The translations under genes were made by a program, and so were the position numbers. Below the pieces are notes generated by a model. The model worked only from the letters and a program-made list of their open reading frames with translations, did not search any database and was not told where the DNA came from. Below, in pieces: positions 1 to 62,648 of a stretch of 64,000 bases of DNA; the first letter of the stretch is position 1; each line of letters starts with the position of its first letter. Source of the DNA: an uncultured virus (IMG/VR IMGVR_UViG_3300032216_000918) (taxonomy: Duplodnaviria > Heunggongvirae > Uroviricota > Caudoviricetes); the IMG/VR virus record IMGVR_UViG_3300032216_000918; one strand, written 5' to 3'.

Positions 1-28
1 CTACTTCTTCGTTTGGCATCATTCCTCC

Positions 29-286
29 TTATTTGATTGAGCCGTCTGCTTTCCTTGGATAACTTCTATTGGCGCTAGCACTCTTTACTTTAAGATTGCT
101 TCGCACCGTCTTACCACCTTTACTCAATGGCTTAGTATGGTCAACATCTTTGCCATCACCTTTGCTAACTACACCTTCGCGTTCAAGCATACGTCTTGCT
201 TTGTTGCGTTGGGCGCGTTTCTTCTTAACTGCTTCTGTGCCATCGTAGTTAGCGTACTCGGCTTTGTAGTCTCTTTTGTAAACCAT
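29..286 (-). CDS. Small HNH endonuclease
   Basis: DVDHTKPLSKGG...SNL....SANR HNH-type motif; basic N-terminus. Confidence 0.8.
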   Translation of the reverse strand: MVYKRDYKAEYANYDGTEAVKKKRAQRNKARRMLEREGVVSKGDGKDVDHTKPLSKGGKTVRSNLKVKSASANRSYPRKADGSIK

Positions 287-295
287 ATCTATTCC

Positions 296-961: not shown

Positions 962-1257
962 TAGAATTTTGCTGTCCGTATTGCTTGCTCGAGGCGGTCT
1001 GCAAACCCACTAACAAACTTCTCGTTGTGGTTAAGCTTGCTCTCACCCATGTCGTGCAAGATAGCATGGGTAATCTCATGCCATAAAGTATTATGCTGAC
1101 GAACCGCCGCTTGTTTAGCTATGGATATATGACCACCATCCCAGTTATACGCGCCTCGGCATTCTTGTTTACCAACAAACACAGTATCGTACAACTCTAC
1201 CTTGATCTTGCGTTTGCCAATTGTTACTACCTTTGGTACTGCATATTTCTTTTTCAC
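961..1257 (-). CDS. Small HExxH zinc metallopeptidase-like protein
   Basis: TLWHEITHAIL motif plus downstream Glu (NEKFV). Confidence 0.6.
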   Translation of the reverse strand: MKKKYAVPKVVTIGKRKIKVELYDTVFVGKQECRGAYNWDGGHISIAKQAAVRQHNTLWHEITHAILHDMGESKLNHNEKFVSGFADRLEQAIRTAKF

Positions 1258-3242: not shown

Positions 3243-3250
3243 TGGGTTCC

Positions 3251-3454
3251 CTATGTAAGTAATATAGCGCCAAAAATAACTGCTACTAATGAAGCGGCAT
3301 ATACAGCTACAGCCGCTCGTTGTTTCTTGATGCTTGATATATCCCCTATGAGTGCGGTCTGCAAATACTCCATGTCACAATCAATTGCAGGTCGCAAGTC
3401 AGGGTGGTAGTTACTGCCGATTTTTACTTTGCCAGTATCGTATGGAGTTCTCAT
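3251..3454 (-). CDS. Hypothetical protein with C-terminal transmembrane helix
   Basis: Hydrophobic C-terminus AAVAVYAASLVAVIFGAILL; ATGA overlap with upstream ORF. Confidence 0.6.
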   Translation of the reverse strand: MRTPYDTGKVKIGSNYHPDLRPAIDCDMEYLQTALIGDISSIKKQRAAVAVYAASLVAVIFGAILLT

Positions 3455-3624
3455 ATACGCCCCCCAGTTACCAAGCTTGCGGTGCTTCTATATATTTCTA
3501 AATCACGTTCGCGTGGGTGGACTGGTGGTTTGTACTCTATAAGAGGGGGTGGTTTTTTTGGCTGTGCCCATTTGATTGGGTCTGATTTATCTTCTTCGAT
3601 TATTTGTTTTGGTTTACTGCTCAT
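3451..3624 (-). CDS. Hypothetical 57-aa protein (not in ORF track)
   Basis: MSSKPKQIIEEDKSDP...GGRI*; SD AAGGAG 5 nt upstream; fills the gap in the operon. Confidence 0.6.
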   Translation of the reverse strand: MSSKPKQIIEEDKSDPIKWAQPKKPPPLIEYKPPVHPRERDLEIYRSTASLVTGGRI

Positions 3625-3633
3625 GTATTCTCC

Positions 3634-3861
3634 TTAGTTTAAAGTTCGGTTAGCCATGCGCTCTTGCACATAATGCCCCGTTGTTTTTGCCGCATCTTCT
3701 AACAGCTCAGGAACTTCCCACTCCTCAATGTTAAGTCCATAGATGCGTACTACTTGTGTTTCATAATCATACCCAACGACAATAGCACAACAGTTGGCTT
3801 CTTCTTCTATGCAATCGTTGAGTATTTCGTGTACTGCACTGAGGGTTTCATTCTGTTCCAT
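3634..3861 (-). CDS. Hypothetical protein
   Basis: ORF tiled in the minus-strand operon. Confidence 0.55.
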   Translation of the reverse strand: MEQNETLSAVHEILNDCIEEEANCCAIVVGYDYETQVVRIYGLNIEEWEVPELLEDAAKTTGHYVQERMANRTLN

Positions 3862-4153
3862 ACCAGTCCTTTATAAAGTCAAGAGCGTTTGCTACATCCT
3901 CGATGTTGTCCTCGTTTACTACAAAGGCTATCCCTTCGACGGCTTTTATTTTCTCCATCTCTGCTTCTTGTAACGCAGTCGGTTTATTACTGCCCGCTTT
4001 ACACTCGATAGCAATAAACTGACCAAAGTAACAAGCCACAACATCAGGTATACCACTACGCCCAAAACCTCCAGTAACAGGGTAGAAGTAATACGCCCCA
4101 TAATTTTTAAGAACATTGACTACTTTCTTTTTTACCTTGGCTTCGGGTGTCAT
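3848..4153 (-). CDS. VRR-NUC domain nuclease / Holliday junction resolvase-like
   Basis: PEAKVK...GIPDVVAC...IECKAG..KPTALQ signature. Confidence 0.85.
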   Translation of the reverse strand: MTPEAKVKKKVVNVLKNYGAYYFYPVTGGFGRSGIPDVVACYFGQFIAIECKAGSNKPTALQEAEMEKIKAVEGIAFVVNEDNIEDVANALDFIKDWYGTE

Positions 4154-4347
4154 TGTAGTTCCGCATTGCGTTTCCTTACTTCATCAATCCGTTGTAAACA
4201 AGAAATAATTTTAAATCGCTGGTCATCGAGCATTCTAAAATCACCCATTGCTTCGGCTTTAAGAGCAAGAATAACCTCAGCTTCGAGGTTACCTAGAGCC
4301 GCGTTCTCACGCATTATTTTTAACGCTTCTAAGTCACTTAACTGCAT
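4150..4347 (-). CDS. Hypothetical protein
   Basis: Overlapping operon tiling. Confidence 0.55.
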   Translation of the reverse strand: MQLSDLEALKIMRENAALGNLEAEVILALKAEAMGDFRMLDDQRFKIISCLQRIDEVRKRNAELQ

Positions 4348-4627
4348 GTTTTAATTTCTCCACAAGTTTTTCTCCCTTTACAGTAAGGGTGTAGTGTACT
4401 AGGCGTAAGTCTTTTTTGTCGTCGGTTTTTTGAACTAACCCTTTTGCAACCAGCATCTTGAGATACTTATTAGTAGATGCCGAAGTAAGGGCTTTCTGTT
4501 TATTTACCAACGAAGCAACGCGACTGTAAGTAGTAGGGGCGGTGCTTTCAAGCAGACCCAGCACATAATCCTCACCCCAACTTAGCCCAGCTTCATCACG
4601 GATATACTGCGCATCAAATATACTCAT
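4334..4627 (-). CDS. MarR-like winged-helix DNA-binding protein
   Basis: LVAKGLVQKTDDKKDLRLVHYTLTVKG matches the MarR wing (D.R....LT..G). Confidence 0.7.
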   Translation of the reverse strand: MSIFDAQYIRDEAGLSWGEDYVLGLLESTAPTTYSRVASLVNKQKALTSASTNKYLKMLVAKGLVQKTDDKKDLRLVHYTLTVKGEKLVEKLKHAVK

Positions 4628-5187
4628 TACTTGCCTTGTTTACCAAACACAATATCGAGCAACTGATATACATGGCGGGCATCGTAGATGTTCAAGCTAC
4701 TAACAAACTCTTCTGCATTGAACTTAGCCTTACCAGTATGAGGACGCGGCGCGTCTTGTGGGGCTGGGGTGTTCGTTTCTGCTACACCTTTTGTTTGCTT
4801 CTTTGTCACGATGCTGACTGTCTTTTTCTTCTTACTGTAAAGACCCTTGATCTGCGTCTCGTAAGTAGTAGCCACCGCCCAGTACACAAATATAACTCGT
4901 CGACCATACCCCTTGAACTCAGGGTTATCAATTGCTACACGCCCAATTAACTTGCGGTCGTACAGGGTCTTAAGTGTTGACGCAATAGATGCGTCGTCTT
5001 TGTTGGTAATATTAAATGCTCTGCGGATGTGTGGCATAGAGCACTTAGGGTTGGTCTTAATAAAGTCATAGATTTGTTCGCTAAACGATTTGTCTGACTC
5101 TCGTGGTGTTTTGGCTACCTTCGGGGCTTCCTCAGGTAAAGTCCAAGTACTAATGATTTTCTTAACTTCAGTTTGCATATCTGGCAT
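4627..5187 (-). CDS. Putative winged-helix DNA-binding protein
   Basis: IYDFIKTNPKCS..I...F....IASTLKTLYDRKLIGR pattern; SD AAGGAG. Confidence 0.5.
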   Translation of the reverse strand: MPDMQTEVKKIISTWTLPEEAPKVAKTPRESDKSFSEQIYDFIKTNPKCSMPHIRRAFNITNKDDASIASTLKTLYDRKLIGRVAIDNPEFKGYGRRVIFVYWAVATTYETQIKGLYSKKKKTVSIVTKKQTKGVAETNTPAPQDAPRPHTGKAKFNAEEFVSSLNIYDARHVYQLLDIVFGKQGK

Positions 5188-5263
5188 ATAAACTCCTTGT
5201 TTGTTGTTTGCCTATTAAATTTTACTACAGTTTTTTACAACAGTTTTTTATGTTGTTTTTATA

Positions 5264-5482
5264 CTACTTCTTCTCGAGTAGATTGAAAAGCTTTTCCATG
5301 GTGTCATCCATGTCAAGAGCCAAGTCGATTAACGCTAACAGCTTTTTGTTAAATTTAAACGATAGGTTATCTGCTTCCCTGCTTTTAATTCCTGATACCG
5401 CTTCGTCTATTGTTGCGTCCATAACTTCATGGTGCAAGGTTCTTATATCAGACCCTAACTCATTTATGCGTTGTTTGTTCAT
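5264..5482 (-). CDS. Hypothetical protein
   Basis: Operon tiling (ATGA overlap). Confidence 0.55.
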   Translation of the reverse strand: MNKQRINELGSDIRTLHHEVMDATIDEAVSGIKSREADNLSFKFNKKLLALIDLALDMDDTMEKLFNLLEKK

Positions 5483-5706
5483 TTCTCTTGTGCCTTTCTT
5501 AAAATTGCTCTAGCAAATTCTCGTCTACCAGCATAGGTATCAATAAGATTTGAAACTTCATCACCTATTGAATCTATTTCCTCATCTGTTAGTGTCTTTG
5601 CTGGATGGGTGTAAAGTGGCTGACCATCAATACTCATAGGGTCTGCCTTCCAATTGATGTAGTCATTACACATACTGTTTACATACGCTACTGGTTCATT
5701 GTTCAT
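5479..5706 (-). CDS. Conserved phage hypothetical protein (EPVA...PLYT...LTDEEI...FARAI type)
   Basis: Motif pattern common in proteobacterial phages. Confidence 0.65.
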   Translation of the reverse strand: MNNEPVAYVNSMCNDYINWKADPMSIDGQPLYTHPAKTLTDEEIDSIGDEVSNLIDTYAGRREFARAILRKAQEK

Positions 5707-5930
5707 TTTGCTTGTGCCTTTAACTGTTTATTAAATTCCTCAACTTCTTTCCACCATTCAGCTGAATACTTTGACGGCTTTGACGACATTGCAGCAGCGT
5801 CATATACCTTTGTTGTTATATCCAGTATGTGTTTTACATCTTTCAAACTAAGTTGACCCATCAATTGCAAAACTTTCATCACCGCAACATCGTTGTCTAA
5901 CGACTGGGGTTTTACGATAGCTTCAATCAT
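5703..5930 (-). CDS. Hypothetical protein (likely start MIEAIVK at 5930)
   Basis: SD GAGGAG upstream of 5930; overlaps neighbours. Confidence 0.55.
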   Translation of the reverse strand: MIEAIVKPQSLDNDVAVMKVLQLMGQLSLKDVKHILDITTKVYDAAAMSSKPSKYSAEWWKEVEEFNKQLKAQAK

Positions 5931-6139
5931 CCTACATACTCCTCTGCCATGTTTTCTGCGTAAGTTAACCAAGGTTTCCATGCTCTGCGTATCTCACCAA
6001 AAGCATAGTGGTGCGGGTTGCCTTGTAGTACTAGGACACGCTTGGCTTCTATGCTTTCTTGTTGTGGGATTGTTGTGAACAAAGAATTGCGGTTAGCTTC
6101 TTCAAGTAGTTTGTTTCTTGTGCGGTGCTTATTTTCCAC
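5927..6139 (-). CDS. Hypothetical protein
   Basis: Operon tiling. Confidence 0.55.
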   Translation of the reverse strand: MENKHRTRNKLLEEANRNSLFTTIPQQESIEAKRVLVLQGNPHHYAFGEIRRAWKPWLTYAENMAEEYVG

Positions 6140-6332
6140 AGTCGTCCTCTAGTTGTTTGGTTTTTGTCTGAAGAGCGATGATGACCGTTGATAAGGTCTG
6201 TAGTTCCCGACAGATTGTGTTGATACTTTGCCTGACTTGTTGAGCATGGGGGCTAGTGTCCATAAAACTATACTGCGCACCTGTCGCCCCTTGAATTACA
6301 GCTTCCCTATCTTCTGTTGTAAATGTTGTCAT
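6129..6332 (-). CDS. Hypothetical protein (MTTFTTEDR N-terminus)
   Basis: Strong SD AAGGAGGA; ATGA coupling. Confidence 0.6.
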   Translation of the reverse strand: MTTFTTEDREAVIQGATGAQYSFMDTSPHAQQVRQSINTICRELQTLSTVIIALQTKTKQLEDDCGK

Positions 6333-6655
6333 ACTTCCTCCTTGTATTGTTTAATTAAACCTTGCACTTTCTCTAACTCGTGCATCTTGCCTGCAATAAA
6401 CCCAGCTTCCCATAGTGGATCTACCATACCGCTAGCTATGTACGCTTCATACTGTTTGGGTATGGGTATCCAGTTAGCGTAAGCGTCGTCGTATAAAGGT
6501 TGGTCATCATTACGCAAAGCCTCATAATCCATAGCGTAACTTTGTAACTCCAAACCCAAATCCGAATCGGCAGTTAATAGATTCTCATCAAACTCCTCTA
6601 TCTTGCCGTCATTCCATATAAATCTTAATTGCACCTTCGTTATTGTTTTGCTCAT
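6329..6655 (-). CDS. Hypothetical protein
   Basis: SD AAGGAGG; ATGA coupling. Confidence 0.6.
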   Translation of the reverse strand: MSKTITKVQLRFIWNDGKIEEFDENLLTADSDLGLELQSYAMDYEALRNDDQPLYDDAYANWIPIPKQYEAYIASGMVDPLWEAGFIAGKMHELEKVQGLIKQYKEEV

Positions 6656-6819
6656 ACAACCTCCTTTTCGTCAAAAGAACCAACGAACTCCATCATGCAA
6701 TCGCCTTCCATAAATCTAGTCCAAAACTCAGCGTCTATCTGTGGTTTGGGTTCGTCAACTTCCGTTCCCATAATTACATAATCGTTTTCATCTATTAAGC
6801 TAAACCTATACACTTTCAT
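6652..6819 (-). CDS. Hypothetical acidic 55-aa protein (not in ORF track)
   Basis: MKVYRFSLIDENDYVIMG...FDEKEVV*; SD AAGGAGG. Confidence 0.65.
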   Translation of the reverse strand: MKVYRFSLIDENDYVIMGTEVDEPKPQIDAEFWTRFMEGDCMMEFVGSFDEKEVV

Positions 6820-6977
6820 ACAACCTCCTTAATTCGATCAGCTTCCTCACATATAAAATCAAACTGCATATCCAAAACATTAAAGTGTTTACCCGCTTCA
6901 GCTTCGGCATCATCGCAGTTATCTGCCTCCACTTCTACATATGCACACCCAGTTACTAATACATTCCATCTGCTCAT
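6816..6977 (-). CDS. Hypothetical acidic 53-aa protein (not in ORF track)
   Basis: MSRWNVLVTGCAYVEVEADNCDDAE...RIKEVV*; SD AAGGAGG. Confidence 0.65.
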   Translation of the reverse strand: MSRWNVLVTGCAYVEVEADNCDDAEAEAGKHFNVLDMQFDFICEEADRIKEVV

Positions 6978-7747
6978 ACAACCTCCTTTATTGCTTGAAC
7001 ATATTTGTTAACAGTCGAACCTTCTAGACCGCACGCTGTATTTACTTCTAACACATAGCACTTATCTTGTGCCTCATTCCATATAACATCTACTGCACCG
7101 AAGTCTAGCCCTAACGCATTAACGGCAGACACAGCCACGCCCCTAAGATCATGAGGTTCTTCGATGTCACCTCTACAAAAGACATACCCATTTGCATGGT
7201 TTCTAATATAAGGGTGATGGTCATCAACAGCAGAACTCCTACGCTTTTCTTGTATGTCAAGAATTTTACTATTAAATACATGAACTCTGAACTCCTTTTG
7301 TTTGCGTATGTATTTTGTATACAACGGGGCATCTACCAACTGATCGTGTTGCTTGGCTACAACAATACCCTGACCCGAGTGAGCGGTAAGTAGGGTGCGA
7401 CACATAACCTTATGCCCTTGGTCTATCCACATCTGTGCGTCTTCTTTGAATGTTGAATAGGGTGGGTGTGGAACTTCGCACGCAACAAAGGCTTGGATAC
7501 TACTAAGCTTGTTAGCGGCTAAGTGAACTGCAACAGGGTGATTGAGAATACGACAGCCCCCCTCAAAGTCCACGCTACTACTACCCCAGTTAATAACAAT
7601 ACGACTGGGTTTACACAACCCGACCCGCTCAGGGTTAATGAACAACACATTACGACCCAGCTCTTGCGTCAACGCATCACGCAATAGCCTTGCACTTCTA
7701 CTGCCTCGCTTGTAGGGTGCGATTGCCACCCTTGATGTGTTTGTCAT
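6974..7747 (-). CDS. RimK-like ATP-grasp ligase
   Basis: NKL, SGQGI, EFRVHV, DFGAVDV and LEVNTACG ATP-grasp motifs. Confidence 0.85.
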   Translation of the reverse strand: MTNTSRVAIAPYKRGSRSARLLRDALTQELGRNVLFINPERVGLCKPSRIVINWGSSSVDFEGGCRILNHPVAVHLAANKLSSIQAFVACEVPHPPYSTFKEDAQMWIDQGHKVMCRTLLTAHSGQGIVVAKQHDQLVDAPLYTKYIRKQKEFRVHVFNSKILDIQEKRRSSAVDDHHPYIRNHANGYVFCRGDIEEPHDLRGVAVSAVNALGLDFGAVDVIWNEAQDKCYVLEVNTACGLEGSTVNKYVQAIKEVV

Positions 7748-7748
7748 A

Positions 7749-7976
7749 CTAAGTATGCTCCCTCAATGTAATTTCATGATCACCCATATCGACAGTCAAG
7801 CGACCATCAGGGTGGGTTTTTAATTCGGCTTTGCCAGTAGCAATAGCCTCAAGCATTACGCATAGTATTACCCCTCCTCTCATAGCCTTGCGTAAGTTAG
7901 TATGAAAATAGCCCGCCGCAACTGTCGCTATGCAAGCCCATGCCAACAAAAATACTTCGCTATATTCCATGGTCAA
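7749..7976 (-). CDS. Hypothetical membrane protein
   Basis: N-terminal hydrophobic helix. Confidence 0.55.
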   Translation of the reverse strand: MTMEYSEVFLLAWACIATVAAGYFHTNLRKAMRGGVILCVMLEAIATGKAELKTHPDGRLTVDMGDHEITLREHT

Positions 7977-8277
7977 CCCTTTCTAGTTCTTTGATTTGCT
8001 TGAGCAAATCCCGTATCTGCTCGTCGTTTTGATAGGTGTATACATCTGTGCCTAGTGTTGTTGAGTAATCCAAATAGTAGTGGTCATCTTCATCTACAAA
8101 CCTAATGACCGCCAACTCATACGGCTTGCTTAAATCACCAAACACAGATACAGTATCGCCACCCCATACAACACTAGCCCCGTAGTTATTTGGGAATCTA
8201 TATATGCGTTGTGTAGCGTTGTCTATGAACTGGTGAGGTCGCTCTACTGCTATGTGCTCCTTACTATGATCTTTCAT
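7960..8277 (-). CDS. Conserved phage hypothetical protein (F.NNYGASVV...YELAV type)
   Basis: Recognisable phage motif. Confidence 0.65.
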   Translation of the reverse strand: MKDHSKEHIAVERPHQFIDNATQRIYRFPNNYGASVVWGGDTVSVFGDLSKPYELAVIRFVDEDDHYYLDYSTTLGTDVYTYQNDEQIRDLLKQIKELERVDHGI

Positions 8278-8279
8278 AT

Positions 8280-8441
8280 TTATTCCTCCTCTATTTCTTT
8301 AGCCCATGCATCGAGTTCTGGTTCAGACATACTTTCTAGCACCGACTCAGCCAGCACATATGCTGGTGCATCTAACAATCTGTCCCACATACTGTCGTAT
8401 GTGTCAGGCTTATACTTCTTTTTTATATCTTTTATATCCAT
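8280..8441 (-). CDS. Hypothetical 53-aa acidic protein ending EIEEE (not in ORF track)
   Basis: MDIKDIKKKYKPDTYDSMWD...AKEIEEE*; SD AAGGAGG. Confidence 0.6.
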   Translation of the reverse strand: MDIKDIKKKYKPDTYDSMWDRLLDAPAYVLAESVLESMSEPELDAWAKEIEEE

Positions 8442-8450
8442 ACTGCCTCC

Positions 8451-9611
8451 TTAGTTAATTGCTGTTCTAACAGGCTTGGTACTCTCAAGCCAAGGGAAAG
8501 ACTGACGAGCGGTAACAAAGTCAGTAACAACACGCTCGAACCAACTGCTGTCAATCATCTCATCGAGTGCCATGTAACTGATCTCCATGAAGTTGTCGAT
8601 ACCGAACTCCTCAACGAACTCGTAAGCGGCGGTGCGACTGATGTGCTTGATCTCGAACTGTGCCTCAATCTCCATAAGCAAGTCCTCCATCACATCGTCC
8701 ATCTCTTTCTCCGACACACCATAGACCTCGGTGCGTGGCACACCATCTTCACCCATAACTGTGTACTCGCCATCAATGAAGTCACCATCTTCATCTTCAA
8801 AGCCACCAACAGGCGGGACATACACAGGGCGATCATATTGTGGTCGTGTTGCAGTTGCGGTTGAAGCTTTGCTATACCCACGCCAGTAGTCTTCATCATC
8901 ATAGCTATCGTAGCCAGTCATATAAGTTGATGACCAACTCTTGTAGTTTGATTTAGGATAGACTGGTTTGTATGGGGTGGACTCGATCTCGTCTAGTGCA
9001 GTATCGTAGTCATCAATGAAGTCCTTAGATACCTTGGTTGGGCTAGACCATGCGTATGTATTTGATAACCAACGACCGCCCCAATACACACCTGAGCTTT
9101 GGTTGACAGTCTGTATACGACCCGTGCTATCCATGAGCACGAACTTGTTTGACCCACCGATATGATCACCCACAATCTCAGCGAACGCATCGGTAAACGC
9201 AAAGTCAATGTTGTTAGCAAGCATAGGGCGTAGATAGTCACGGATATAGTGCCATGTATCTGACTTGGTTAGGTCACCCGCATTACCTGTGGATAGCACG
9301 CCGTTGTGCATGAGCCATACATCTAGACCATGCTCGGACTTGTTAAACACTTCGTATGGGTGGCAGTTCTCCATGTCGATATTGCCGTGGGTTTTCATAC
9401 GCAGATGGAACGCACAATCGTAACCATCAATGTGGTTGTTGTAGAACTCGACAAATTCCTGTGCATTGGCAGGAAGAATCTTCTCGATAAGAAGTTCGCC
9501 ATCTACACTACGCATGATACCAACGCCATCGGAGTTGGTTGCATAAAAATCCTCAAGCCATTCTTGCGTGAGGGTCGGGGCTGTTGCTGACTGAACAATT
9601 AATAAACACAT
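8451..9611 (-). CDS. Class II (Ntn) glutamine amidotransferase with acidic C-terminal extension
   Basis: N-terminal MC nucleophile; N.DG.G, HLRMKTHG, NCHPY, MHNG and SDT motifs. Confidence 0.9.
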   Translation of the reverse strand: MCLLIVQSATAPTLTQEWLEDFYATNSDGVGIMRSVDGELLIEKILPANAQEFVEFYNNHIDGYDCAFHLRMKTHGNIDMENCHPYEVFNKSEHGLDVWLMHNGVLSTGNAGDLTKSDTWHYIRDYLRPMLANNIDFAFTDAFAEIVGDHIGGSNKFVLMDSTGRIQTVNQSSGVYWGGRWLSNTYAWSSPTKVSKDFIDDYDTALDEIESTPYKPVYPKSNYKSWSSTYMTGYDSYDDEDYWRGYSKASTATATRPQYDRPVYVPPVGGFEDEDGDFIDGEYTVMGEDGVPRTEVYGVSEKEMDDVMEDLLMEIEAQFEIKHISRTAAYEFVEEFGIDNFMEISYMALDEMIDSSWFERVVTDFVTARQSFPWLESTKPVRTAIN

Positions 9612-9660
9612 AATTTACTTCCTTTCATTTGATTGGTTTGTTGGATAGGTTTCTATCCGC

Positions 9661-11145
9661 TTATACTTCAACTGATACTGCCTGTTTGTCCATGCGTGGG
9701 TTGGGCTTGACGACTGCCTGTTTATCTAGGCTGAATCCCTTAGACCGCAAGAATGATCGTAGATAGATAGTGTCCTTGCGATTGTCAGGCTGGCTAATAA
9801 ACTTGAGGAAGTTATCAGAGGTTAAGTCTTGTTGCCCTGTGTCACGAGTAAAGAACCATGACGCATATGTAAACTCCAAGCAAGCCATGATGGTCTCATA
9901 GCGTAGCGTACCCTTGAACAGTCTGAACTCTACTGTGCGTTCGGGTTGGAAGTTGACTGACTCGTAGCGATCCTCGTTGAGCCTACGCATACCATCGGAC
10001 TTAGCGTGCTTGAGCCATGAGTAGTCAGCGGTCTTGTTCTTGACTTGGCTGTATCTGCTTGAGTCACGGCGGGCAATAGCCCTGAACAGGCGTTGGTTTC
10101 TACTATCGTGCATAAACAAGATTAGCTTAGCGGCATGGAACATACTCATACCCTTCTTGCAGATATGCACATGAAGACCACAAGTCTTGGTATCGTGCGA
10201 CTTCATACCCTCGAATGGTTTCTTAAAGAACGCTAGTTGCTTAGCGTGTACATCAAGACCCGTATAGCCTGTGACCATCTCGAAGCCGTGGTTGAGCGAG
10301 CCGTCTTCCTCAAGTAAAGCATAGGTATGAACCTTGCCTGTTGACTCGTCAGTATAGTTACCGATCTCTTCCACTAACTGCTCGGCTTTCTCAGAGCGTG
10401 GGGTATCACCGACAGACTCCATCTCCAACTCTAGCCCCATGAAGACAGGGGTTTTGCGTTGTGAATACTTAGTCGGTATGAGTCCGAGCTTGGACTTGCT
10501 ACTGTGATAACCGCCGATCGGACCACGATCGTCATCATGGTCGTCATCATCATCATCGTCATGGTCAGGCTCTTCGTCATCTTCATGCACCACGCAATCA
10601 TGGTAGTCAGACCAACGATAGTTATTGTCCCGACAATCTGAACAAATCCAGCGATCGCCGTTATACACCCACGAGCCATCATGCTCAGGCTCAATATAGT
10701 CGCAGTCAGAACAGTAGTCATACTCAGGTGCATCGGGGAATTTGTCTGAGTCGTTAAGGAAATCGCACCACTCACTAGCCCCTCGTCTATCCCTGATCTC
10801 GCTATTGTCGTTGAGTAATTGGACTAGAGTGTTATGATCTTGGGTCTTGAAACACTCGGCTATACCCTTGCCGATCTCGTAGTAGTTGCGTCTGTAATTC
10901 ATGAGTAAAATATAGTGATCGGTAGTAGAACCGCTCAAGTGCCTCCGATACGACTGGGTAGCCGTAAGGTTGCGTTTGAGTTGGCTACGACCTACCCCCA
11001 TATACTCCGCAACAGTCCACAACTCGGGGCGACGCATATGCTCCAATTTGTAGCGGAAGAACTCACGGGTTAAGACTGCTGTTGCGTCGCGATACTTAAT
11101 TTCCATCGCCGCAATTTCTGATACTGTGTATGTTTGTGATGGCAT
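9661..11145 (-). CDS. Putative amidoligase (COOH-NH2 ligase, glutamine synthetase-like fold)
   Basis: GLELEME, EEDGSL..GFEMVT, TCGLHVH, RYESVN and TVEFRLFKGT; N-terminal CxxC..CxxC and poly-Asp linker. Confidence 0.85.
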   Translation of the reverse strand: MPSQTYTVSEIAAMEIKYRDATAVLTREFFRYKLEHMRRPELWTVAEYMGVGRSQLKRNLTATQSYRRHLSGSTTDHYILLMNYRRNYYEIGKGIAECFKTQDHNTLVQLLNDNSEIRDRRGASEWCDFLNDSDKFPDAPEYDYCSDCDYIEPEHDGSWVYNGDRWICSDCRDNNYRWSDYHDCVVHEDDEEPDHDDDDDDDHDDDRGPIGGYHSSKSKLGLIPTKYSQRKTPVFMGLELEMESVGDTPRSEKAEQLVEEIGNYTDESTGKVHTYALLEEDGSLNHGFEMVTGYTGLDVHAKQLAFFKKPFEGMKSHDTKTCGLHVHICKKGMSMFHAAKLILFMHDSRNQRLFRAIARRDSSRYSQVKNKTADYSWLKHAKSDGMRRLNEDRYESVNFQPERTVEFRLFKGTLRYETIMACLEFTYASWFFTRDTGQQDLTSDNFLKFISQPDNRKDTIYLRSFLRSKGFSLDKQAVVKPNPRMDKQAVSVEV

Positions 11146-11201
11146 ACTATAAACTCCTTCTGTTTATGTTGATGGTTTGATGGGATAGAAACCTATCCCG
11201 T

Positions 11202-11309
11202 TTATTTAAACAACAGCCCTACTAAATACCTAGTTACTTGACCTACGATAAAAATACTGCAAAACAATAAAGCTAACCTACTAAATAAATCAAAGTTAAA
11301 GTAACGCAT
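11202..11309 (-). CDS. 35-aa hydrophobic peptide (not in ORF track)
   Basis: MRYFNFDLFSRLALLFLQYFIVGQVTRYLVGLLFK*; preceded by AGGAGGTTGT. Confidence 0.55.
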   Translation of the reverse strand: MRYFNFDLFSRLALLFCSIFIVGQVTRYLVGLLFK

Positions 11310-11317
11310 ACAACCTC

Positions 11318-11500
11318 CTATTTAAGTTTTGTTTCCCAAACTCGGTTCTTTAATTCCTCACGCATTAGCCTACGCACTAACTGACTAGCGTTAATGTCTA
11401 GGCTTTCGCAATAAGAATCCCATGCTTGTTTAAGTTCTAAGTCCATACAAAAAGAAACATGGGGTGTGGCTGGTTTAGTGGGTTTAGTTTTTGCTTTCAT
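11318..11500 (-). CDS. Ribbon-helix-helix (CopG/Arc-like) DNA-binding protein
   Basis: HVSFCMD strand, then ELKQAWDSYC helix, then NASQLVRRLM helix. Confidence 0.7.
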   Translation of the reverse strand: MKAKTKPTKPATPHVSFCMDLELKQAWDSYCESLDINASQLVRRLMREELKNRVWETKLK

Positions 11501-11514
11501 ACAACCTCCTTTAG

Positions 11515-12054
11515 TTAATCGTCTTCGTCATCTAGCACGAGCCGATACTTCATGATGTCCCCACCGCTTTCACCTGACACCATCCAGTCCCAAGACCTAG
11601 CCCTGCGTGTATCTTCTTGCGGGATAGGGTAGTCTCGTAGCCATATCTTTACTATGGGGTTTGTTTCCGCTAGTGCTAACGGCACACCGCCGAGGCTAGT
11701 TTCTAACTCCTCGCCCCTATCAAACTTAATCCCCCACTCAACCCATGGGTTTTCTAGCTTGATAATGCGATACCCCACAATCGCATCCTCACAATGCGGG
11801 TTATCACCCCACCATAGACGCCCACCTTTAGCCTTACCTTGCAGACCGCTACGCAGTATGAATCTAATAGTGGTGTCTAACTCTACCCCCGCAGGTCGCA
11901 AGTCTTCTTTAGTTACTGCTTGATCTCGATCAAGGGGGTGTAGCTTTTTATAGGCGTTGGGGATTTTGATTTCAGGTGGGGGTGGTGCTGGTCTAGATGC
12001 AATTTCTCCCCGCAACTGCTCAATCATTTGTTCCACAGTTAAATCGTTAGGCAT
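11515..12054 (-). CDS. Hypothetical protein with two tandem copies of a small phage domain
   Basis: P...LR...W...AIVGYR and P...LR...W...DIMKYR repeats. Confidence 0.6.
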   Translation of the reverse strand: MPNDLTVEQMIEQLRGEIASRPAPPPPEIKIPNAYKKLHPLDRDQAVTKEDLRPAGVELDTTIRFILRSGLQGKAKGGRLWWGDNPHCEDAIVGYRIIKLENPWVEWGIKFDRGEELETSLGGVPLALAETNPIVKIWLRDYPIPQEDTRRARSWDWMVSGESGGDIMKYRLVLDDEDD

Positions 12055-12388
12055 TTGCTACCTCCTTTCTCATCTTCTCTCGTTCAACAAACCTCTCAAA
12101 CGGGAACTCTTTCATACCCGCTATCAAAGCATCTATATACCCGAAGTCATAACTAACCACGCTTTCACACAGGCTTTCTAACTCCCACAAGTATTTCAAC
12201 TCAGGGGCAAACTCTGTGTATTCAGTATCTGGAAATGTGATTTCTTCAAACTTAGTCAAGCGAACCCATTGCCTATCGCTTTCATACATAACCTTACTGT
12301 ATTCAAACTTAACTTCCTTATTGCCTATTTGAATCGTGGCTTTTGGTGCGTTGGCTAACCAATCTATTACTGCCTGTTCGTATGTCAT
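12047..12388 (-). CDS. Hypothetical protein (likely start MTYEQ)
   Basis: SD AAGGA upstream of 12388. Confidence 0.55.
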   Translation of the reverse strand: MTYEQAVIDWLANAPKATIQIGNKEVKFEYSKVMYESDRQWVRLTKFEEITFPDTEYTEFAPELKYLWELESLCESVVSYDFGYIDALIAGMKEFPFERFVEREKMRKEVANA

Positions 12389-12401
12389 ACGCTTTCCTTT
12401 G

Positions 12402-12623
12402 TTAGTTGGTTGCATTTAGAACTTCGTTGAACTCGACTGTTAGGTCGTGCTTTTCTTCGGAAGTCAGACCTTTCAAGGCTGGGCTTAAATCAAACTCCCA
12501 CCCACCAGCCCACTTACTATCTGAGTGGTAGGTATGCGTTGCCTTAATAGGTGTGCCTTCTACATCTACTACATACTCTTGACATACTTTTTTGTATACC
12601 AATGTAGGGTTCTTTATACGCAT
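12402..12623 (-). CDS. Hypothetical protein
   Basis: SD AAGGA; operon tiling. Confidence 0.55.
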   Translation of the reverse strand: MRIKNPTLVYKKVCQEYVVDVEGTPIKATHTYHSDSKWAGGWEFDLSPALKGLTSEEKHDLTVEFNEVLNATN

Positions 12624-12659
12624 GGTTTTTCCTTTCGTTTGTTAGTGGTTACTATGGGT

Positions 12660-13262
12660 TTACTTGGATAGGTTTCTATCCCTGTCGTATTTGTTTAGTT
12701 CATTGGTTCTCCTTTGTTGTGAATTTTTATACTGCGTTTCCAAAACCGCCAAGTGGTCTAGGCGTTGTTGTATTAGTTCCTGTCTTTCTTGTTCATTACT
12801 CCACTTGGTTTGTCTTGTGGGTGTGATTAGCGGATAGGTTTCTATCCTGTGCTTGAGGGTTCGGTATGCGTTGCCTGCCCGTCTTACTTCTTTATCTAGG
12901 CTTGCCTTGAGTGCATCTCGTTCCTTGTTTTTTTCTTTTTGCCAGCGTTCCCGCATGATGCGTTTACGGGATAGGTTTATATCCCTTCTTTTTTGTTCGA
13001 TTAGCAGTTCCCCTAAGTAGGGGTTTATGCGTTTGTTTGTGATCTTGTTGCGTAGTTCCTTGAGGGTGAGCTTTGATCGTGGTTTGCGTTTTGGTTGACA
13101 CGATTTGCATAAAGAGCTGATGACCGTAGTTCCTGTTTCTACTCGCCTGTTTAGGGCTTTACTGTATTGTTCGGCAGTTAGCCTACGCTTGAACTCGGTT
13201 CTCTCCTTCACTTCGTTACACTTCTTGCATTTTATAAAGTCGGGCTTGGTTAGTTTTTTCAT
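12660..13262 (-). CDS. Basic protein with N-terminal CxxC...CxxC zinc ribbon
   Basis: CKKC...CKSC; Lys/Arg-rich; contains 3 dyad copies. Confidence 0.6.
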   Translation of the reverse strand: MKKLTKPDFIKCKKCNEVKERTEFKRRLTAEQYSKALNRRVETGTTVISSLCKSCQPKRKPRSKLTLKELRNKITNKRINPYLGELLIEQKRRDINLSRKRIMRERWQKEKNKERDALKASLDKEVRRAGNAYRTLKHRIETYPLITPTRQTKWSNEQERQELIQQRLDHLAVLETQYKNSQQRRTNELNKYDRDRNLSK

Positions 13263-13310
13263 ACAAGTTCCTTCGGTTCGGATAGGTTTCTATCCCGTTT
13301 AGCCAAAAAA

Positions 13311-13601
13311 GTAGACAAATGTCCACCTTGTAACACATAGTTGTCCACAGTAGTTGTCCTATGTTTGAGCCTTATACTACTACGCTTTTTACCCATGCTA
13401 ACACAGCTGTCTACGCAATTCCAGCAATTTAAAGACTAAGAAAGTAAGACAGAAAGAAACAGTCCCACTTATTTACCCTTATATATATATATTTAGAATT
13501 TAGTATTTATATATATAGGTGTGCTGGGAATGTGGTAGACGCACATAGGATAAAGGGTTGCGGGCGTCAAGGTAGTGTCCACTACGGATTTAAACTAGAC
13601 A
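13311..13601. other. Putative replication origin-like non-coding region
   Basis: ORF-free; TA-repeat core (about 13480-13517), imperfect inverted arms and repeated TGTCYAC/GTAGAC units. Confidence 0.4.
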
Positions 13602-13671
13602 ATTACCAAGTGCTTATTTTTTAAGCACACTAGCAGAAACGGGATAGAAACCTATCCCAAACCCCTTCCAA

Positions 13672-13938
13672 TTACAGCCAAACGAATCCACAACGGGCTA
13701 ACTGATCTGAGGTAATGCTGACCCAGCCTGAGTCTTTCCCATCTCTCCTGAGTAGGCTACGGCGTTTCCTATCGGTTCGTGCAAGTGAGGTGTATGGGTG
13801 CTTGATTACTTCGCCTATCTCATTACCTTTCTTGCGGACTATGAGCCATACATTACTACGCCCTATGATGGGGTGTTCTGCGTTTTCAAGCATGAGTTGC
13901 TTTAATACAGCATTGGGTTTGAGGGTGATTGATTTCAT
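13672..13938 (-). CDS. Hypothetical protein
   Basis: Operon tiling. Confidence 0.55.
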   Translation of the reverse strand: MKSITLKPNAVLKQLMLENAEHPIIGRSNVWLIVRKKGNEIGEVIKHPYTSLARTDRKRRSLLRRDGKDSGWVSITSDQLARCGFVWL

Positions 13939-14090
13939 GATGTTGCCTTTCTTTTGTTGGTTGATACTAGGTTTAGATACTGCTCTACTTCGGGGGTGCT
14001 TAACTGCAACTGCCTTGCTATCGCCATGATGGTGTAGCCCTGTGCATATAAAGCCTCACAGTCAAAGGCTAGGTCTTTCATCGCACTCAT
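13935..14090 (-). CDS. 51-aa helix-turn-helix protein (not in ORF track)
   Basis: LYAQGYTIMAIARQLQLSTPEVEQYL HTH pattern; ATGA overlaps at both ends. Confidence 0.6.
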   Translation of the reverse strand: MSAMKDLAFDCEALYAQGYTIMAIARQLQLSTPEVEQYLNLVSTNKRKATS

Positions 14091-14257
14091 AGCATACCGC
14101 CTGCTAGATAACAGCCTAGCTTAGCCATGAGTGGGGTTATGACTTCGGGGTTTGCGTCTTCGTCATTACGCAATGCCAGCACTATGTAGGCTATTTCTTG
14201 GTCGGTTAGATCTACCTGTGCGAACACAGGGGTTGTGGGTTTAATCGGCTTTTTCAT
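14087..14257 (-). CDS. Hypothetical 56-aa protein (not in ORF track)
   Basis: MKKPIKPTTPVFAQVDLTDQEIAYIVLALR...; ATGA overlaps. Confidence 0.55.
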   Translation of the reverse strand: MKKPIKPTTPVFAQVDLTDQEIAYIVLALRNDEDANPEVITPLMAKLGCYLAGGML

Positions 14258-14424
14258 TCGAATTTCCCTTTCTTGTAGTCGTTGAGGTTAAACGACATAA
14301 AGACTTCGCCCATTGTTATGGGCTTGTGGCGGTCAGGCTTAGCCTTGGTGTCGGATAGAATCCTATCCCGTTGTTCTCTAGCCATTTGACGCATGGCTAG
14401 TTGTTGGGCTTTGCTTAGATGCAT
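14254..14424 (-). CDS. Hypothetical protein (likely start MHLSK)
   Basis: SD AAGGAG upstream of 14424. Confidence 0.55.
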   Translation of the reverse strand: MHLSKAQQLAMRQMAREQRDRILSDTKAKPDRHKPITMGEVFMSFNLNDYKKGKFE

Positions 14425-14435
14425 GGTAGTTCTCC

Positions 14436-14579
14436 TTATGGTCGTGATGAAATCATTTTGAACTGCGTGTTGAGTTTGTCCCATACTTCGCCAGCTTCTT
14501 CTAGACCATGCACATCAGTCTTGAAAATGAAAGCGGTTGATGGGTTTGAATCAGGCATTACAAAGTAAATGGTAAACAT
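14436..14579 (-). CDS. Hypothetical 47-aa protein (not in ORF track)
   Basis: MFTIYFVMPDSNP...SSRP*; SD AAGGAG. Confidence 0.55.
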   Translation of the reverse strand: MFTIYFVMPDSNPSTAFIFKTDVHGLEEAGEVWDKLNTQFKMISSRP

Positions 14580-14649
14580 AACAACTCCTTAGTTTGTGGA
14601 TAGAAACCTATCCGATTTGACATAAAACTAAACAGCGAGAAAGCCTCGT

Positions 14650-15078
14650 TCACTTAACGATACGGAAGAACTTAGCTTGCTCTGCTTTACTCAACTGCTC
14701 AAACAACTCAACAACCTTATCGACTGTGACCTTGACTTGCTTGGATACCCCTGACTTCTCGGCTCTCACAATGTGATACCCAAACTGAGAGTTGGCTCTC
14801 ATGTATGCCTTCTGATGCTCAGGCTTTCTCTCGGTTCTCGGTTGGGATAGGATTCTATCCGCTTCCTTGCTAGTGATACTCAAGAACCCCATGAGGTAGT
14901 TCACTCTCCACTCTTGAGCCCATTCCTTCTGGGCTTCCTTATCTTCCTTGATGTATTGCTTGTGCCATACCTCTGACTCCTCAAGTGTGATACGGGCTTG
15001 CTGTCCTAGACCTAAAGCGAATTGGTCATAGGTGATGTCAGAACCAACTGAGGTTGTTAAGTAAATTGCTTTCTTCAT
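14650..15078 (-). CDS. First early-arm gene, hypothetical (likely start MKKAIY)
   Basis: SD AGGAG upstream of 15078. Confidence 0.6.
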   Translation of the reverse strand: MKKAIYLTTSVGSDITYDQFALGLGQQARITLEESEVWHKQYIKEDKEAQKEWAQEWRVNYLMGFLSITSKEADRILSQPRTERKPEHQKAYMRANSQFGYHIVRAEKSGVSKQVKVTVDKVVELFEQLSKAEQAKFFRIVK

Positions 15079-15093
15079 TTGATAACTCCTAAT

Positions 15094-15118
15094 AAAAAGC
15101 CCAGCTAATCGGCTGGGC
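15094..15118 (-). terminator. Intrinsic terminator-like hairpin in the leader of the first early gene
   Basis: Minus strand GCCCAGC-CGATTA-GCTGGGC-TTTTT. Confidence 0.5.
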
Positions 15119-15418
15119 AACGAATGGATAGCAATCTATCCATGTAAACAGTATAGCTTTAGGGTCTATTCCCCCCTTCGTCATGGCTATATGGCGACCC
15201 CACTAGGGGGGTATGAGGCTGTTTTGGGTGGCATGGCACGAGCACACTAGATCATTGTTCCTTAACCGCACAGCTAAAAAATGTCAAATTATGTAAAGTT
15301 TTGCCTGATTATTGTAAAGTTGTAAAATTTTCTATAAAAATCAAGGGGTTACGTGTCAAATCTTTTACTTTTTACGCTAGCCGGCTAGCAAAAACTTTAT
15401 AAAAAATCGACATATTAA

Positions 15419-15502: not shown

Positions 15503-15619
15503 ATGTTTGATTTTGTTAAAGTAACCAAGCAGTACGAAGAGTTGGCAGAGCGCATTAAAGAAGTAAACGAGTTCTGGATTAATTCCGTTATCTCCAGCCT
15601 CAAGCAGTTCGTTAAGTAA
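15503..15619 (+). CDS. 38-aa amphipathic helical peptide (phasin-like)
   Basis: MFDFVKVTKQYEELAERIKEVNEFWINSVISSLKQFVK; SD AAGGA. Confidence 0.65.
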   Translation: MFDFVKVTKQYEELAERIKEVNEFWINSVISSLKQFVK

Positions 15620-15650
15620 AAAAAACCCCCGGGCGTTTTAAGTCCGGGGG
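15618..15650 (-). terminator. Intrinsic terminator (minus strand)
   Basis: CCCCCGG-11 nt-CCGGGGG followed by T8 on the minus strand only. Confidence 0.75.
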
Positions 15651-15713
15651 CTAAACCATCAACAACAAAGGAGATTTGCGCAAGGCCCAAACGAAGGAGG
15701 AAAAGCCGTACGC
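15618..15713 (-). ncRNA. Predicted ~95-nt sRNA with two anti-Shine-Dalgarno seeds
   Basis: Extended -10 TGgTATGAT (15720-28); 5' hairpin with loop UUCCUCCUUCGUUU; linker AUCUCCUUUGUUGUUGAUGGUUU; terminator plus U8. Confidence 0.55.
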
Positions 15714-15794
15714 AAAAGAATCATACCACAAAAATAAAACTGTTGTATACTTCCAACATTCGCTCACCCCAGCGCAACCAAGGAGGTAGTTAAT

Positions 15795-16427
15795 TTGCTT
15801 TTAGAGCATTTGGTCTCAGCGCAAGCTGCTGATTTTGTACCAGACATCGAGTCTGGCGTGGGTAACTTTGCCCCCCTAGATGACTTAACTGCACCTCAAA
15901 CCCTTGGCGCCCAAAAGCAAACAGTCGATTGGCTCAGCCAATTCTCCTCAGAAGAGGACGAGGCACAAATCTTATCAAACGCCCAAGAACAGCAAGTAGC
16001 CAACGCTTTTGCTGCGCTAACCACAAACTCCCCCGACGCAAAGAATCAACTTCTCAACCTTCAAGTCCCAGAAGAAATTGTAAGTGCCGTGGCTATGGTA
16101 TCTGGGTACCAGTGGGAGTTTGTAAAGCAGGCTAATGAGCTGCGCTCAATGAGTGTAGCCAAAATTGTTAAAGAAACTGAGCACCCCGATGCCAGGATAA
16201 GGCTAAAAGCGCTGGAGTTATTGGGTAAGGTGACTGAGGTTGCTCTGTTTACCGAGCGTGTCGAGGTCAATAAGAAAGAAATGAGCGACGAAGAGCTAGA
16301 AAAACGGATTCGCGAGAAGCTATCTAAGTACATGGGCAAGGTCGATGTGGTTGAAGTTGACGATATTGAGATTGTGGAGAAGGTTATAGCGCCTGAGTAC
16401 ACCAGAAAAGACGACGACACTGAATGA
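15795..16427 (+). CDS. terS: Putative terminase small subunit
   Basis: Immediately upstream of terL; RLKALELLGK motif; TTG start after SD AAGGAGG. Confidence 0.65.
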   Translation: MLLEHLVSAQAADFVPDIESGVGNFAPLDDLTAPQTLGAQKQTVDWLSQFSSEEDEAQILSNAQEQQVANAFAALTTNSPDAKNQLLNLQVPEEIVSAVAMVSGYQWEFVKQANELRSMSVAKIVKETEHPDARIRLKALELLGKVTEVALFTERVEVNKKEMSDEELEKRIREKLSKYMGKVDVVEVDDIEIVEKVIAPEYTRKDDDTE

Positions 16428-24756: not shown

Positions 24757-25087
24757 CATTGTAGTGATGTATTCGGTGGCAGTTTGCGCATAAAACAATG
24801 CACTTTTTTATTTCTTCTTCCGCTTTTTTAAACTGCCCATTTGATATTAAACGGTTAACGTCATACTCTTTTGTGGTTGGGTCTTCATGATGAAAATCTA
24901 GTGCCGCTATATGACTAAACCCACACTGTGCACAGCACAAACTTGATTTATAGTCCTTCCACTCTTGCCATTTTCTTTTTTTATATTTAGAGTTTGCCTC
25001 TATAAGACGTTCTTTGTTACGTAAATAATGTTCACGGCTGTACTCCGCATGTTTGGCTTTTTTTACGCTCGCGTCTTTGTATGGCAT
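24737..25087 (-). CDS. HNH endonuclease
   Basis: CAQCG...LDFHH...KC.VLCANCHRIHH. Confidence 0.85.
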   Translation of the reverse strand: MPYKDASVKKAKHAEYSREHYLRNKERLIEANSKYKKRKWQEWKDYKSSLCCAQCGFSHIAALDFHHEDPTTKEYDVNRLISNGQFKKAEEEIKKCIVLCANCHRIHHYNEKNPAL

Positions 25088-25520
25088 CGGGCTGTACCTT
25101 ATACCGCCAATAGATTGAGTGCTTCCAGCTCCAAGGCTGTCCGGGCTGGTAGATTTTGAAACCCGCGTTGATTAACGAGTTTGCTGATGCTGGGTTGTTT
25201 GTTGTATCGGTAATTAACCAATTCCATCCTAGCTTTCTTGCCTGTTTAATTCGCGCCAGTATAAGTCTTTTTTGTAAACCATGTCCAGTATATCCATCTA
25301 GAACACCCGCCCTACATAAATAACCTGTATCGTTCCATTTCATCGAGCGGACCAAACCCGCAAAAGCGACAGGCTTTCCATCTTCCGCATACGCAACCCA
25401 CCAATGACCCCGATCCGGTTGGTATGGCGTATCCTGAGGAAGTATTTTCTTTTGTAGAAAAAGTAGTGTGGTTTGAACTGACTGGACTCTGATGTCCACT
25501 TTTTTCACTGTGAATTTCAT
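25032..25520 (-). CDS. GNAT acetyltransferase (likely start MKFTVKK)
   Basis: Motif A V..GYTGHGLQKRL; motif B N.ASANSL..AGF. Confidence 0.85.
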   Translation of the reverse strand: MKFTVKKVDIRVQSVQTTLLFLQKKILPQDTPYQPDRGHWWVAYAEDGKPVAFAGLVRSMKWNDTGYLCRAGVLDGYTGHGLQKRLILARIKQARKLGWNWLITDTTNNPASANSLINAGFKIYQPGQPWSWKHSIYWRYKVQPDAIQRRERKKSQTCGVQP

Positions 25521-60415: not shown

Positions 60416-60429
60416 AGATGCTCCTTGGG

Positions 60430-60833: not shown

Positions 60834-60929
60834 ATTATTCTTTTAAAAAAAGGCGGGGAGGCATCCTTCTTAGTCTGAAATCTCTAAGAGCCATAGAGCT
60901 GAATAGTGTCAGCCTCCCCAAAACCACCC

Positions 60930-62170: not shown

Positions 62171-62180
62171 TTACTTCTCC

Positions 62181-62585: not shown

Positions 62586-62604
62586 ACTTCCTCCTTTGTC
62601 AATA

Positions 62605-62633
62605 ATTATACATCATTGCTGATGGCAATACAA
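62605..62633 (-). promoter_or_regulatory. Sigma70 promoter TTGTAT-17-TATAAT
   Basis: -35 at 62628-33, -10 at 62605-10, followed by SD AAGGAGG. Confidence 0.6.
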
Positions 62634-62648
62634 CCCGAATACGGGTTT

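Follow-up and report, generated by a model that had tools for sequence, protein, structure and literature searches.

To our knowledge, it is mostly unknown how early genes are turned off in phages without an RNA polymerase or sigma factor of their own. The c4 and P4 CI RNAs are processed from a longer transcript. The c4 antisense RNA of P1/P7 (RF01695) is phage-encoded, pairs through its loops and blocks the translation of the phage's own mRNA near a ribosome-binding site (RBS), and it controls one antirepressor operon in immunity (PMC12197685). In phage T4, an extended Shine-Dalgarno (SD) motif, GGAG plus flanks, marks early mRNAs for translational inactivation by the endoribonuclease RegB, a protein nuclease needing S1 (PMC3014915). 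SviR of the V. cholerae PLE is a trans-acting, multi-target RNA with two seeds that lowers the translation of lytic-phage mRNAs (10.1101/2022.04.08.487710), and VpdS and PreS are likewise trans-acting, multi-target small RNAs (sRNAs) of mobile elements (PMC12197685). As of the 2022 preprint, sRNA control of lytic phage transcripts was predicted, not validated (10.1101/2022.04.08.487710). In bacteria, RNAs that are short, end in a terminator and contain unpaired CU-rich segments able to pair with RBSs, often two per RNA, are represented by the Burkholderia double-hairpin or 'toxic' sRNAs (RF02278), anti-hemB/ncS04 (RF02837), ncS16 (RF02866) and the Neisseria NmsRs (PMC5688073). The CU-rich stretches of the Burkholderia double-hairpin RNAs cover the RBS in 55-80% of the predicted interactions (PMC5688073), and the toxic sRNAs are described as expressed and of unknown function (PMC4603805).

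Here, we analyzed a 64,000-nt stretch of DNA from an uncultured virus of the Caudoviricetes (IMGVR_UViG_3300032216_000918), referred to as the window, in which a short RNA gene is predicted upstream of the terminase small subunit gene terS (Table 1). Like the bacterial RNAs, its product is short, ends in a terminator and carries CU-rich unpaired stretches complementary to RBSs, with at least one anti-SD motif in 49 of the 50 RNA bodies compared. Whereas the Burkholderia sRNAs are chromosomal and multi-copy (three to five homologues per bacterial genome for RF02278) with predicted targets in host metabolism (PMC5688073), the covariance model found one copy of the phage RNA per phage record, and this RNA matches phage early leaders via lineage-specific extensions. 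In contrast to c4 (PMC12197685), it has its own promoter and terminator and would address several unlinked early genes, and where RegB is a protein, the phage RNA would recognize its mRNAs by base pairing (PMC3014915). SviR is a satellite RNA directed against its helper phage, unlike an RNA for the phage's own genes (10.1101/2022.04.08.487710), whereas VpdS and PreS are temperate-phage RNAs acting via Hfq or host targets (PMC12197685).

No Rfam family reached its gathering threshold in the window. The weak matches included RF02278, RF02837 and RF02866, with 19.6-29.2 bits against gathering cut-offs of 48-50; RF02278 scored 20.3 bits in the window and 26.9 in the related locus L041 (threshold 50 bits), and RF02837 scored 21.3 bits in the window and 29.2 and 23.8 in relatives (threshold 49.5 bits). 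The C4 family (RF01695) gave no match at either the gathering or the E-value level, and no antirepressor was found among the 41 ORFs scanned in PHROGs or the 19 scanned in Pfam. In the available excerpts of the literature on SviR, VpdS and PreS, no precedent was found for an anti-SD regulon of a phage's own early genes. A description of the RNA family was likewise not found in the accessible literature; four tables or documents of PMC10690425 held no match, the opened table having no sequence column, and the family may be an unnamed entry among the 10,006 viral candidate RNAs of that work. Anti-RBS sRNAs are already known in bacteria; what is new is a phage sRNA family whose seeds co-vary with an extended-SD tag on early mRNAs.

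Table 1. Coordinates of the predicted RNA gene, its predicted targets and neighbouring features in the window.
Feature	Position	Strand	Remarks
Predicted 96-nt small RNA	15618..15713	-	+1 G at 15713; single copy in the window (covariance model)
Extended -10 box	15720..15728	-	Hexamer TATGAT at 15725-15720; T-tracts upstream; no -35 consensus
Hairpin 1	15678..15713	-	11-bp stem, 15713-15703 with 15688-15678
Loop seed 1, UUCCUCCUUCGUUU	15689..15702	-	Anti-SD plus conserved UUCGUUUG extension
Linker seed 2	15653..15677	-	Anti-SD UCUCCUUU plus UGUUGAUGGUUU; varies by lineage, replaced in L024-L032
Intrinsic terminator	15618..15652	-	GC stem, then U8
Divergent terS -10, TATACT	15746..15751	+	Occupies the expected -35 place of the sRNA promoter
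Terminase small subunit terS	15795..16427	+	phrog_51, E 6e-4; terL next; syntenic anchor, outside the RNA
38-aa ORF	15503..15619	+	Converges on the RNA terminator; variable slot; no Pfam match
Amidoligase leader, best predicted target	11146..11180	-	12-mer and SD pair with seed 2; p 0.047 alone
Leader of 73-aa early gene, predicted seed-1 target (CAAACGAAAGGAAAA)	12624..12645	-	p 0.028, uncorrected; motif recurs in relatives
Leader of 134-aa gene, possible target	62586..62605	-	p 0.038, uncorrected; ortholog margin 2.5, n = 9
Glutamine amidotransferase leader, possible seed-1 target (CAAATGAAAGG, G-U wobble)	9612..9635	-	Not significant in the window
GGATAG dyads	9643, 11183, 12666, 12832, 13280, 13642, 14353, 14598, 14845, 15126		Early block

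The RNA gene and its conservation

On the minus strand, TGgTATGAT and six further bases precede G 15713, where an 11-bp stem begins; its loop measures 14 nt, and a linker of 25 nt leads on to the GC stem and U8. All strings quoted in the initial annotation were recovered in place, namely TGGTATGAT at 15728-15720, TATACT at 15746-51, CTCCTT at 11154-59 and the 12-mer at 11167-78, as were its target matches at 14585-96 (11/12), 12627-41, 5193-5208 and 62591-99. The extended -10 box is present at 15728-15720, while its TG is not universal in the family, with G at -14 in 25 of 48 promoters. Hairpin 1, which had been described as favoring this strand, indeed folds better on the minus strand (-15.4 kcal/mol) than on the plus strand (-10.6 kcal/mol), reaches a z of -3.27 on the minus strand with 0 of 200 shuffles as good, and contains one C-U mismatch besides its G-U pairs. 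The terminator had been thought to function on the minus strand only; its stem is in fact stabler on the plus strand (-20.3 vs. -16.9), and it is the U8 tail that exists only on the minus strand. As for the second anti-SD, which had been taken as unpaired, the linker is open in the centroid structure but weakly self-paired in the minimum free energy structure, and the probability of being unpaired is 0.09 for this anti-SD, next to 0.46 for the loop.

Related loci were collected by terS-anchored scans of viral contigs and genomes, plus one pattern scan, which gave 128 loci, many of them redundant, each with at least 230 nt upstream of terS. According to an automatic terminator rule, the RNA lies beside terS in 123 of these, comprising 50 distinct RNA bodies at terS identities of 48-100%. 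Among the five loci missed by the rule, L043 and L048 have the RNA with a longer stem, L145 and L147 carry it elsewhere, and L164 is ambiguous and was left uncounted. Of 33 metagenome pattern matches, 22 were located beside terS and 5 were the same element on cut contigs; the remaining 6, which have no terminator, were rejected as chance, as were the chance pattern matches L108, L110 and L115.

The -10 box was picked without reference to the hairpin, and 48 of the 50 bodies have a purine 7 nt further downstream; the predicted stem begins at +1 or +2 in all 50, a count taken without a shuffle control. Within the promoter, T-12 (47/48), A-11 (48/48) and T-7 (48/48) are conserved together with the T-tracts, and the 48 promoters share no -35 consensus. 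The sRNA and terS -10 boxes are spaced by 19-23 nt in 33 of 48 cases, although the scan was biased towards approximately 20. The first nine stem positions of the 34 bodies with a UUCGUUUG loop amount to 221 Watson-Crick, 64 G-U, 3 A-C and 18 other pairs (306 pairs), and the minus strand is the better fold in 47 of the 50 bodies. Compensatory two-sided changes were found at 6 of 7 stem pairs in 17 diverged sequences. The presence of the element in relatives, on which the initial annotation had staked its proposal, was borne out, and its stem covaries: stem covariation was 0.608 vs. 0.255 after shuffling (0 of 500 as high), slid controls stayed at or below 0.164, and the stem is 97.9% paired in 10 close relatives, while the loop remains near-invariant as the stem changes. 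At least two anti-SD motifs are present in 41 of the 50 RNAs, one in 8 and none in 1. A U-run of 5-12 closes all 50 bodies, with at most 3 T per 8 nt on the opposite side, and the G-U bias and this U-tail fix the strand of the RNA.

We are thus nearly certain that the minus-strand RNA gene is real. Judged from its sequence, it is a discrete, structured gene with exposed anti-SD seeds, and the sequence supports a transcription unit reaching from a -10-only promoter to its own terminator. As in trans-acting sRNAs, there is a dedicated promoter, an intrinsic terminator and no conserved ORF. A plus-strand peptide starting from an ATG of a few subtypes was rejected because the frames are unequal in length and none exists in the window.

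The locus could also be read without any pairing RNA, as an insulating terminator combined with a by-product of a bidirectional terS promoter, or as a cis-antisense RNA or SD decoy for a plus-strand transcript. The overlap of the sRNA and terS promoters, a comparable back-to-back promoter pair at 5225-5270 and the meeting of the terminator with the 38-aa ORF would fit such a reading. However, a terminator needs no covarying 5' stem with a conserved anti-SD loop, the G-U bias and the U-tail set the strand, and the unit is retained where the small ORF is absent (L024) and also after relocation and inversion (L145/L147), which renders this reading highly improbable. In the latter two loci, the covariance model placed the whole unit approximately 490 nt from terS on the opposite strand, where the order of TATACT, +1 G, stem, anti-SD loop, second anti-SD and terminator is kept. 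The relocated, inverted unit speaks against a mere insulator or plus-strand decoy. The promoter of the L147 copy sits among look-alike tRNA, small-ORF and terS promoters on the late strand. The changed loop of this copy matches its own amidoligase leader at 11 of 11 positions, and the full leader set of L147 gave a p of 0.097.

Two further candidates were discarded. The hairpin beside terS in L145 and L147 was rejected as an inverted RNA copy, being without a match to the phages' own leaders; the true copy lies further off. A type I toxin-antitoxin antisense RNA was rejected as well, as there is no obligate toxin partner: the convergent slot 3' of the RNA is occupied by other, unrelated small ORFs, by a tRNA (L033) or by nothing (L024-L032), and the L147 RNA and the genes around it share one strand.

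Pairing with early leaders

The initial annotation had proposed a multi-target, trans-acting anti-SD RNA and had named five target leaders in the window. Its amidoligase leader proved to be the best of 82 leaders, with -22.2 kcal/mol after opening of the RNA. The target list as a whole did not exceed chance, as 4 of the 82 leaders had p ≤ 0.05, about the number that chance would give, and of the five leaders named, two scored at chance level (14579, p 0.44; 5187, p 0.50). The leader of terS, a late gene, ranked third of the 82 (-18.2). Pairing beyond the SD was borderline against shuffled controls in the window alone, where shuffles with a fixed SD yielded p 0.080 for the leader flanks (early set) and p 0.052 for the RNA flanks, and it became apparent at the family level. 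Hence, the RNA gene and, at the family level, the preference for own early leaders were supported, while the significance of single 9-12-nt matches in the window was not.

Two observations concern the genes themselves. The longest exact seed match (13 nt) is found at 12700-12720 (-), where an SD within the 3' end of a 200-aa ORF precedes a two-codon frame, ATG-AAC-TAA, just upstream of the 73-aa gene. At 6974-11145 (-), genes for an amidoligase, a class-II amidotransferase and a RimK-like ATP-grasp protein form a cluster, which in other lineages is replaced or joined by an early-block module of approximately 327, 371, 403 and 290 aa; leaders of both modules match the RNA. The amidotransferase leader is matched by the L024 and L075 linkers in their own genomes, in L024 by the replaced linker over 10 nt.

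For the comparison across lineages, a simple script called genes in 28 records, 19 of which are lineage representatives, and some of the starts are wrong (L118 amidoligase). Minus-strand genes at most 12 kb from the RNA were defined as early, and L165 was excluded from the target tests, having non-phage genes where the early block is expected. The leader motifs A to C were taken from the RNA complements after the data had been seen. In 14 type-A genomes, 27 of 287 early leaders have the motif AACGA(0-2 A)GG, a share that drops to 3 of 147 among replication leaders and 2 of 274 among late ones (Fisher p 1e-6). The type-B genome has motif B, ACCAAGG, in 6 of its 27 early leaders, and the type-C genome has motif C, CACAAGG, in 5 of its 13; of the 287 early leaders in type A, 1 contains motif B and none contains motif C. 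Covariation of seeds and target leaders in relatives, as anticipated by the initial annotation, is thus seen in leader motifs that switch with the seed type. Seed types B, C and D each form a single clade in the terS tree, so that only about five independent seed changes are represented.

Own pairs surpassed the expectation by 1.27 kcal/mol in an energy matrix of 19 x 19 (permutation p 5e-5), and this advantage was retained in the deeper lineage sets (p 4e-4 for 11 and 1.3e-3 for 6 lineages), with the own RNA in first place in only 4 of 19 columns. Early leaders paired better than late leaders in all six long records (p 1e-6 to 8e-4), and 5 of the 6 remained below 0.05 when only leaders with an SD of at least 5 were considered. 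Flank shuffles with a fixed SD gave p ≤ 0.05 for early leaders in 8/19 and 9/19 lineages, the leader shuffle being missed by 11 of 19, and for late leaders in 1 of 13 lineages, where the hit was a false ORF on the RNA itself. The margin of own over foreign RNAs among orthologs was 2.6 for the amidoligase (n = 12), the largest among the large ortholog groups, 3.2 for a 137-aa gene (n = 5) and 1.6 for the 371-aa gene (n = 9); DNA polymerase orthologs had no own-RNA preference (margin -0.8). No excess was found for L113 (0.69), L050 (0.45) and L060, in which the own RNA ranked 16th, 10th and 18th of 19, respectively. L004, L009 and L113 keep the AAACCATCAC linker, and no own early leader within the first 12 kb has it. 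The G/A variant of the loop is accompanied by no clear matching change in the leaders, the A-loop set comprising 14 leaders only. With regards to these data, a statistical match of each lineage's seeds to its own early leaders is supported at the sequence level, and the match to unlinked leaders that characterizes a trans-acting sRNA exceeds chance in the family and is borderline in the window.

A real sRNA could alternatively be aimed mainly at host mRNAs, by general SD masking or against one host defence gene, and would then match phage leaders as a by-product of its origin as an inverted leader copy. The loop varies far less than most of the predicted phage targets do, the own-leader excess is missing in some lineages, and the similarly built Burkholderia double-hairpin RNAs are predicted to cover many host RBSs and slow growth when overexpressed (PMC5688073). 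However, at least two independent clades show a joint change of the seed and of the leader motifs of several non-orthologous early genes, and a phage with a host-aimed RNA would presumably keep its own early genes free of such matches; we consider a mainly host-directed function unlikely. Still less credit is given to an RNA that mainly silences the early leaders of co- or superinfecting relatives as a c4-type immunity. In another clade (G002), the amidotransferase leader agrees with the complement of the L075 linker at 19/20 positions, and seed A, common to lineages at approximately 60% terS identity, would pair with many relatives, but own pairs beat foreign pairs on average, and silencing of relatives would be compatible with a role in the phage's own early genes. 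The position beside terS, fixed in 123 of 128 loci, together with the known Hfq-competing phage sRNAs (VpdS, PMC12197685), might suggest a protein-binding RNA, such as an Hfq or S1 sponge or a terminase-associated RNA, with the C/U-rich loops as the protein site. This would leave the lineage-matched leader motifs and the relocation unexplained and appears to be the least probable of all readings. A phage-encoded, trans-acting small RNA that turns down the phage's own early genes is, in our judgement, the best explanation and a likely one, and we expect with similar, fairly good confidence that the own early leaders are its main targets.

Proposed action and timing

Because its loops mirror early ribosome-binding sites and change with them, the RNA probably turns down the early genes to which these sites belong. 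In the proposed mechanism, a host sigma-70-type RNA polymerase would transcribe the RNA from the -10-only promoter that overlaps the divergent terS promoter, and transcription would stop at the RNA's own terminator. The 5' stem would keep the anti-SD loop open, with the second anti-SD following after the stem, and in some of the phage's own early mRNAs the seeds would base-pair with the SD together with the A/C-rich stretch that directly precedes it. These mRNAs bear a lineage-specific extended SD, e.g., AACGAAGG, ACCAAGG or CACAAGG, for which there is statistical support across lineages, and the predicted set includes the amidoligase/amidotransferase module, the 371-aa gene module and small early genes. 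With the SD covered, 30S binding would be blocked and the early genes lowered together; we infer this block of ribosome loading because anti-SD sRNAs are known to act in this way.

An action at the early-to-late change is suggested tentatively, because of the coupling of the promoter to terS as its one indication; in L045, however, an early promoter is scored by the sRNA promoter matrix as well. A second back-to-back promoter pair was noticed at 5225-5272, where a minus-strand -10 with A-tracts for a 186-aa gene faces a plus-strand T-tract/TATACT site. The latter is the second-best match of the sRNA matrix in the window and would read antisense into the early block.

It is conceivable, though we would not yet rely on it, that the family constitutes an RNA-only early regulon, in which early mRNAs would bear a lineage-specific extended-SD 'address' and one terminase-coexpressed sRNA would read it and shut them off at the late change. 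Seed and address would have been re-coded together several times, and the RNA might also silence superinfecting kin. If true, such a regulon would be the RNA counterpart of T4 RegB. A direct swap test is possible in this family, for which the RNA is defined, targets can be named and seed-target variants occur naturally.

The phage genome and neighbouring elements

The window makes up the greater part of a podophage-like genome. Its minus strand encodes the early and replication functions (1-15120 and 57554-64000), its plus strand those of packaging and structure, beginning with terS at 15795, and the RNA gene sits in the gap between these two divergent blocks. No RNA polymerase or sigma factor was detected among the 41 ORFs scanned (PHROGs). 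The closest terL relatives are HTVC023P-type pelagiphages and their kin at 44-53% identity, and the window encodes GroES, a core gene of the HTVC023P-type group (PMC9599517). The RNA-bearing family is part of a widespread group related to these phages, and the phages carrying the RNA are uncultured and from freshwater. Cultured phages gave neither a blastn match nor a tblastn match to terS. The terL relatives HTVC023P, HTVC027P, DSL-LC04 and MinM2 have other layouts, and the covariance model found no RNA in 11-15 kb of each. A genome scan returned five MAG contigs of mixed phyla. In L165 (G012:C24), on a Chitinophagales MAG contig, the RNA lies at a junction where phage late genes and a split terL adjoin non-phage genes, which may reflect a prophage remnant or a misassembly.

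Several minor features were observed around the RNA gene. Helical-looking ORFs of 38-46 aa (window 15503-15619 (+); L147:9219-9359), which belong to no Pfam family, occupy the slot beside the RNA in several lineages, and a GNAT acetyltransferase is encoded at 25032-25520 (-) within the late block. Repeated TTTGACA/TTTTACA motifs occur at 15270-15400 between the RNA and the first early gene, and distant relatives have similar repeats plus a TGTC-AAA-N-TTTGACA dyad; this region is a possible terminase/packaging site or early promoter cluster.

The early block of the window further contains ten GGATAG-N4-CTATCC dyads, some of them within ORFs. The link between these dyads and the RNA, drawn from their position beside several target leaders, was not sustained, as the dyads are limited to one clade and not linked to the RNA. 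None were found in L119, L121, L074, L075 and L134. In the close relatives L004, L124, L118 and L113, which have 5-6 copies, the dyad reads GGACAG-N4-CTGTCC and is altered in both arms throughout. The dyads probably serve as an operator or a protection site, bound by a protein whose specificity has changed. A 60-aa ribbon-helix-helix protein encoded at 11318-11500 (-) (Pfam RHH_9, 23.9 bits vs. a cut-off of 23.4) is a candidate for the binder of the GGATAG dyads.
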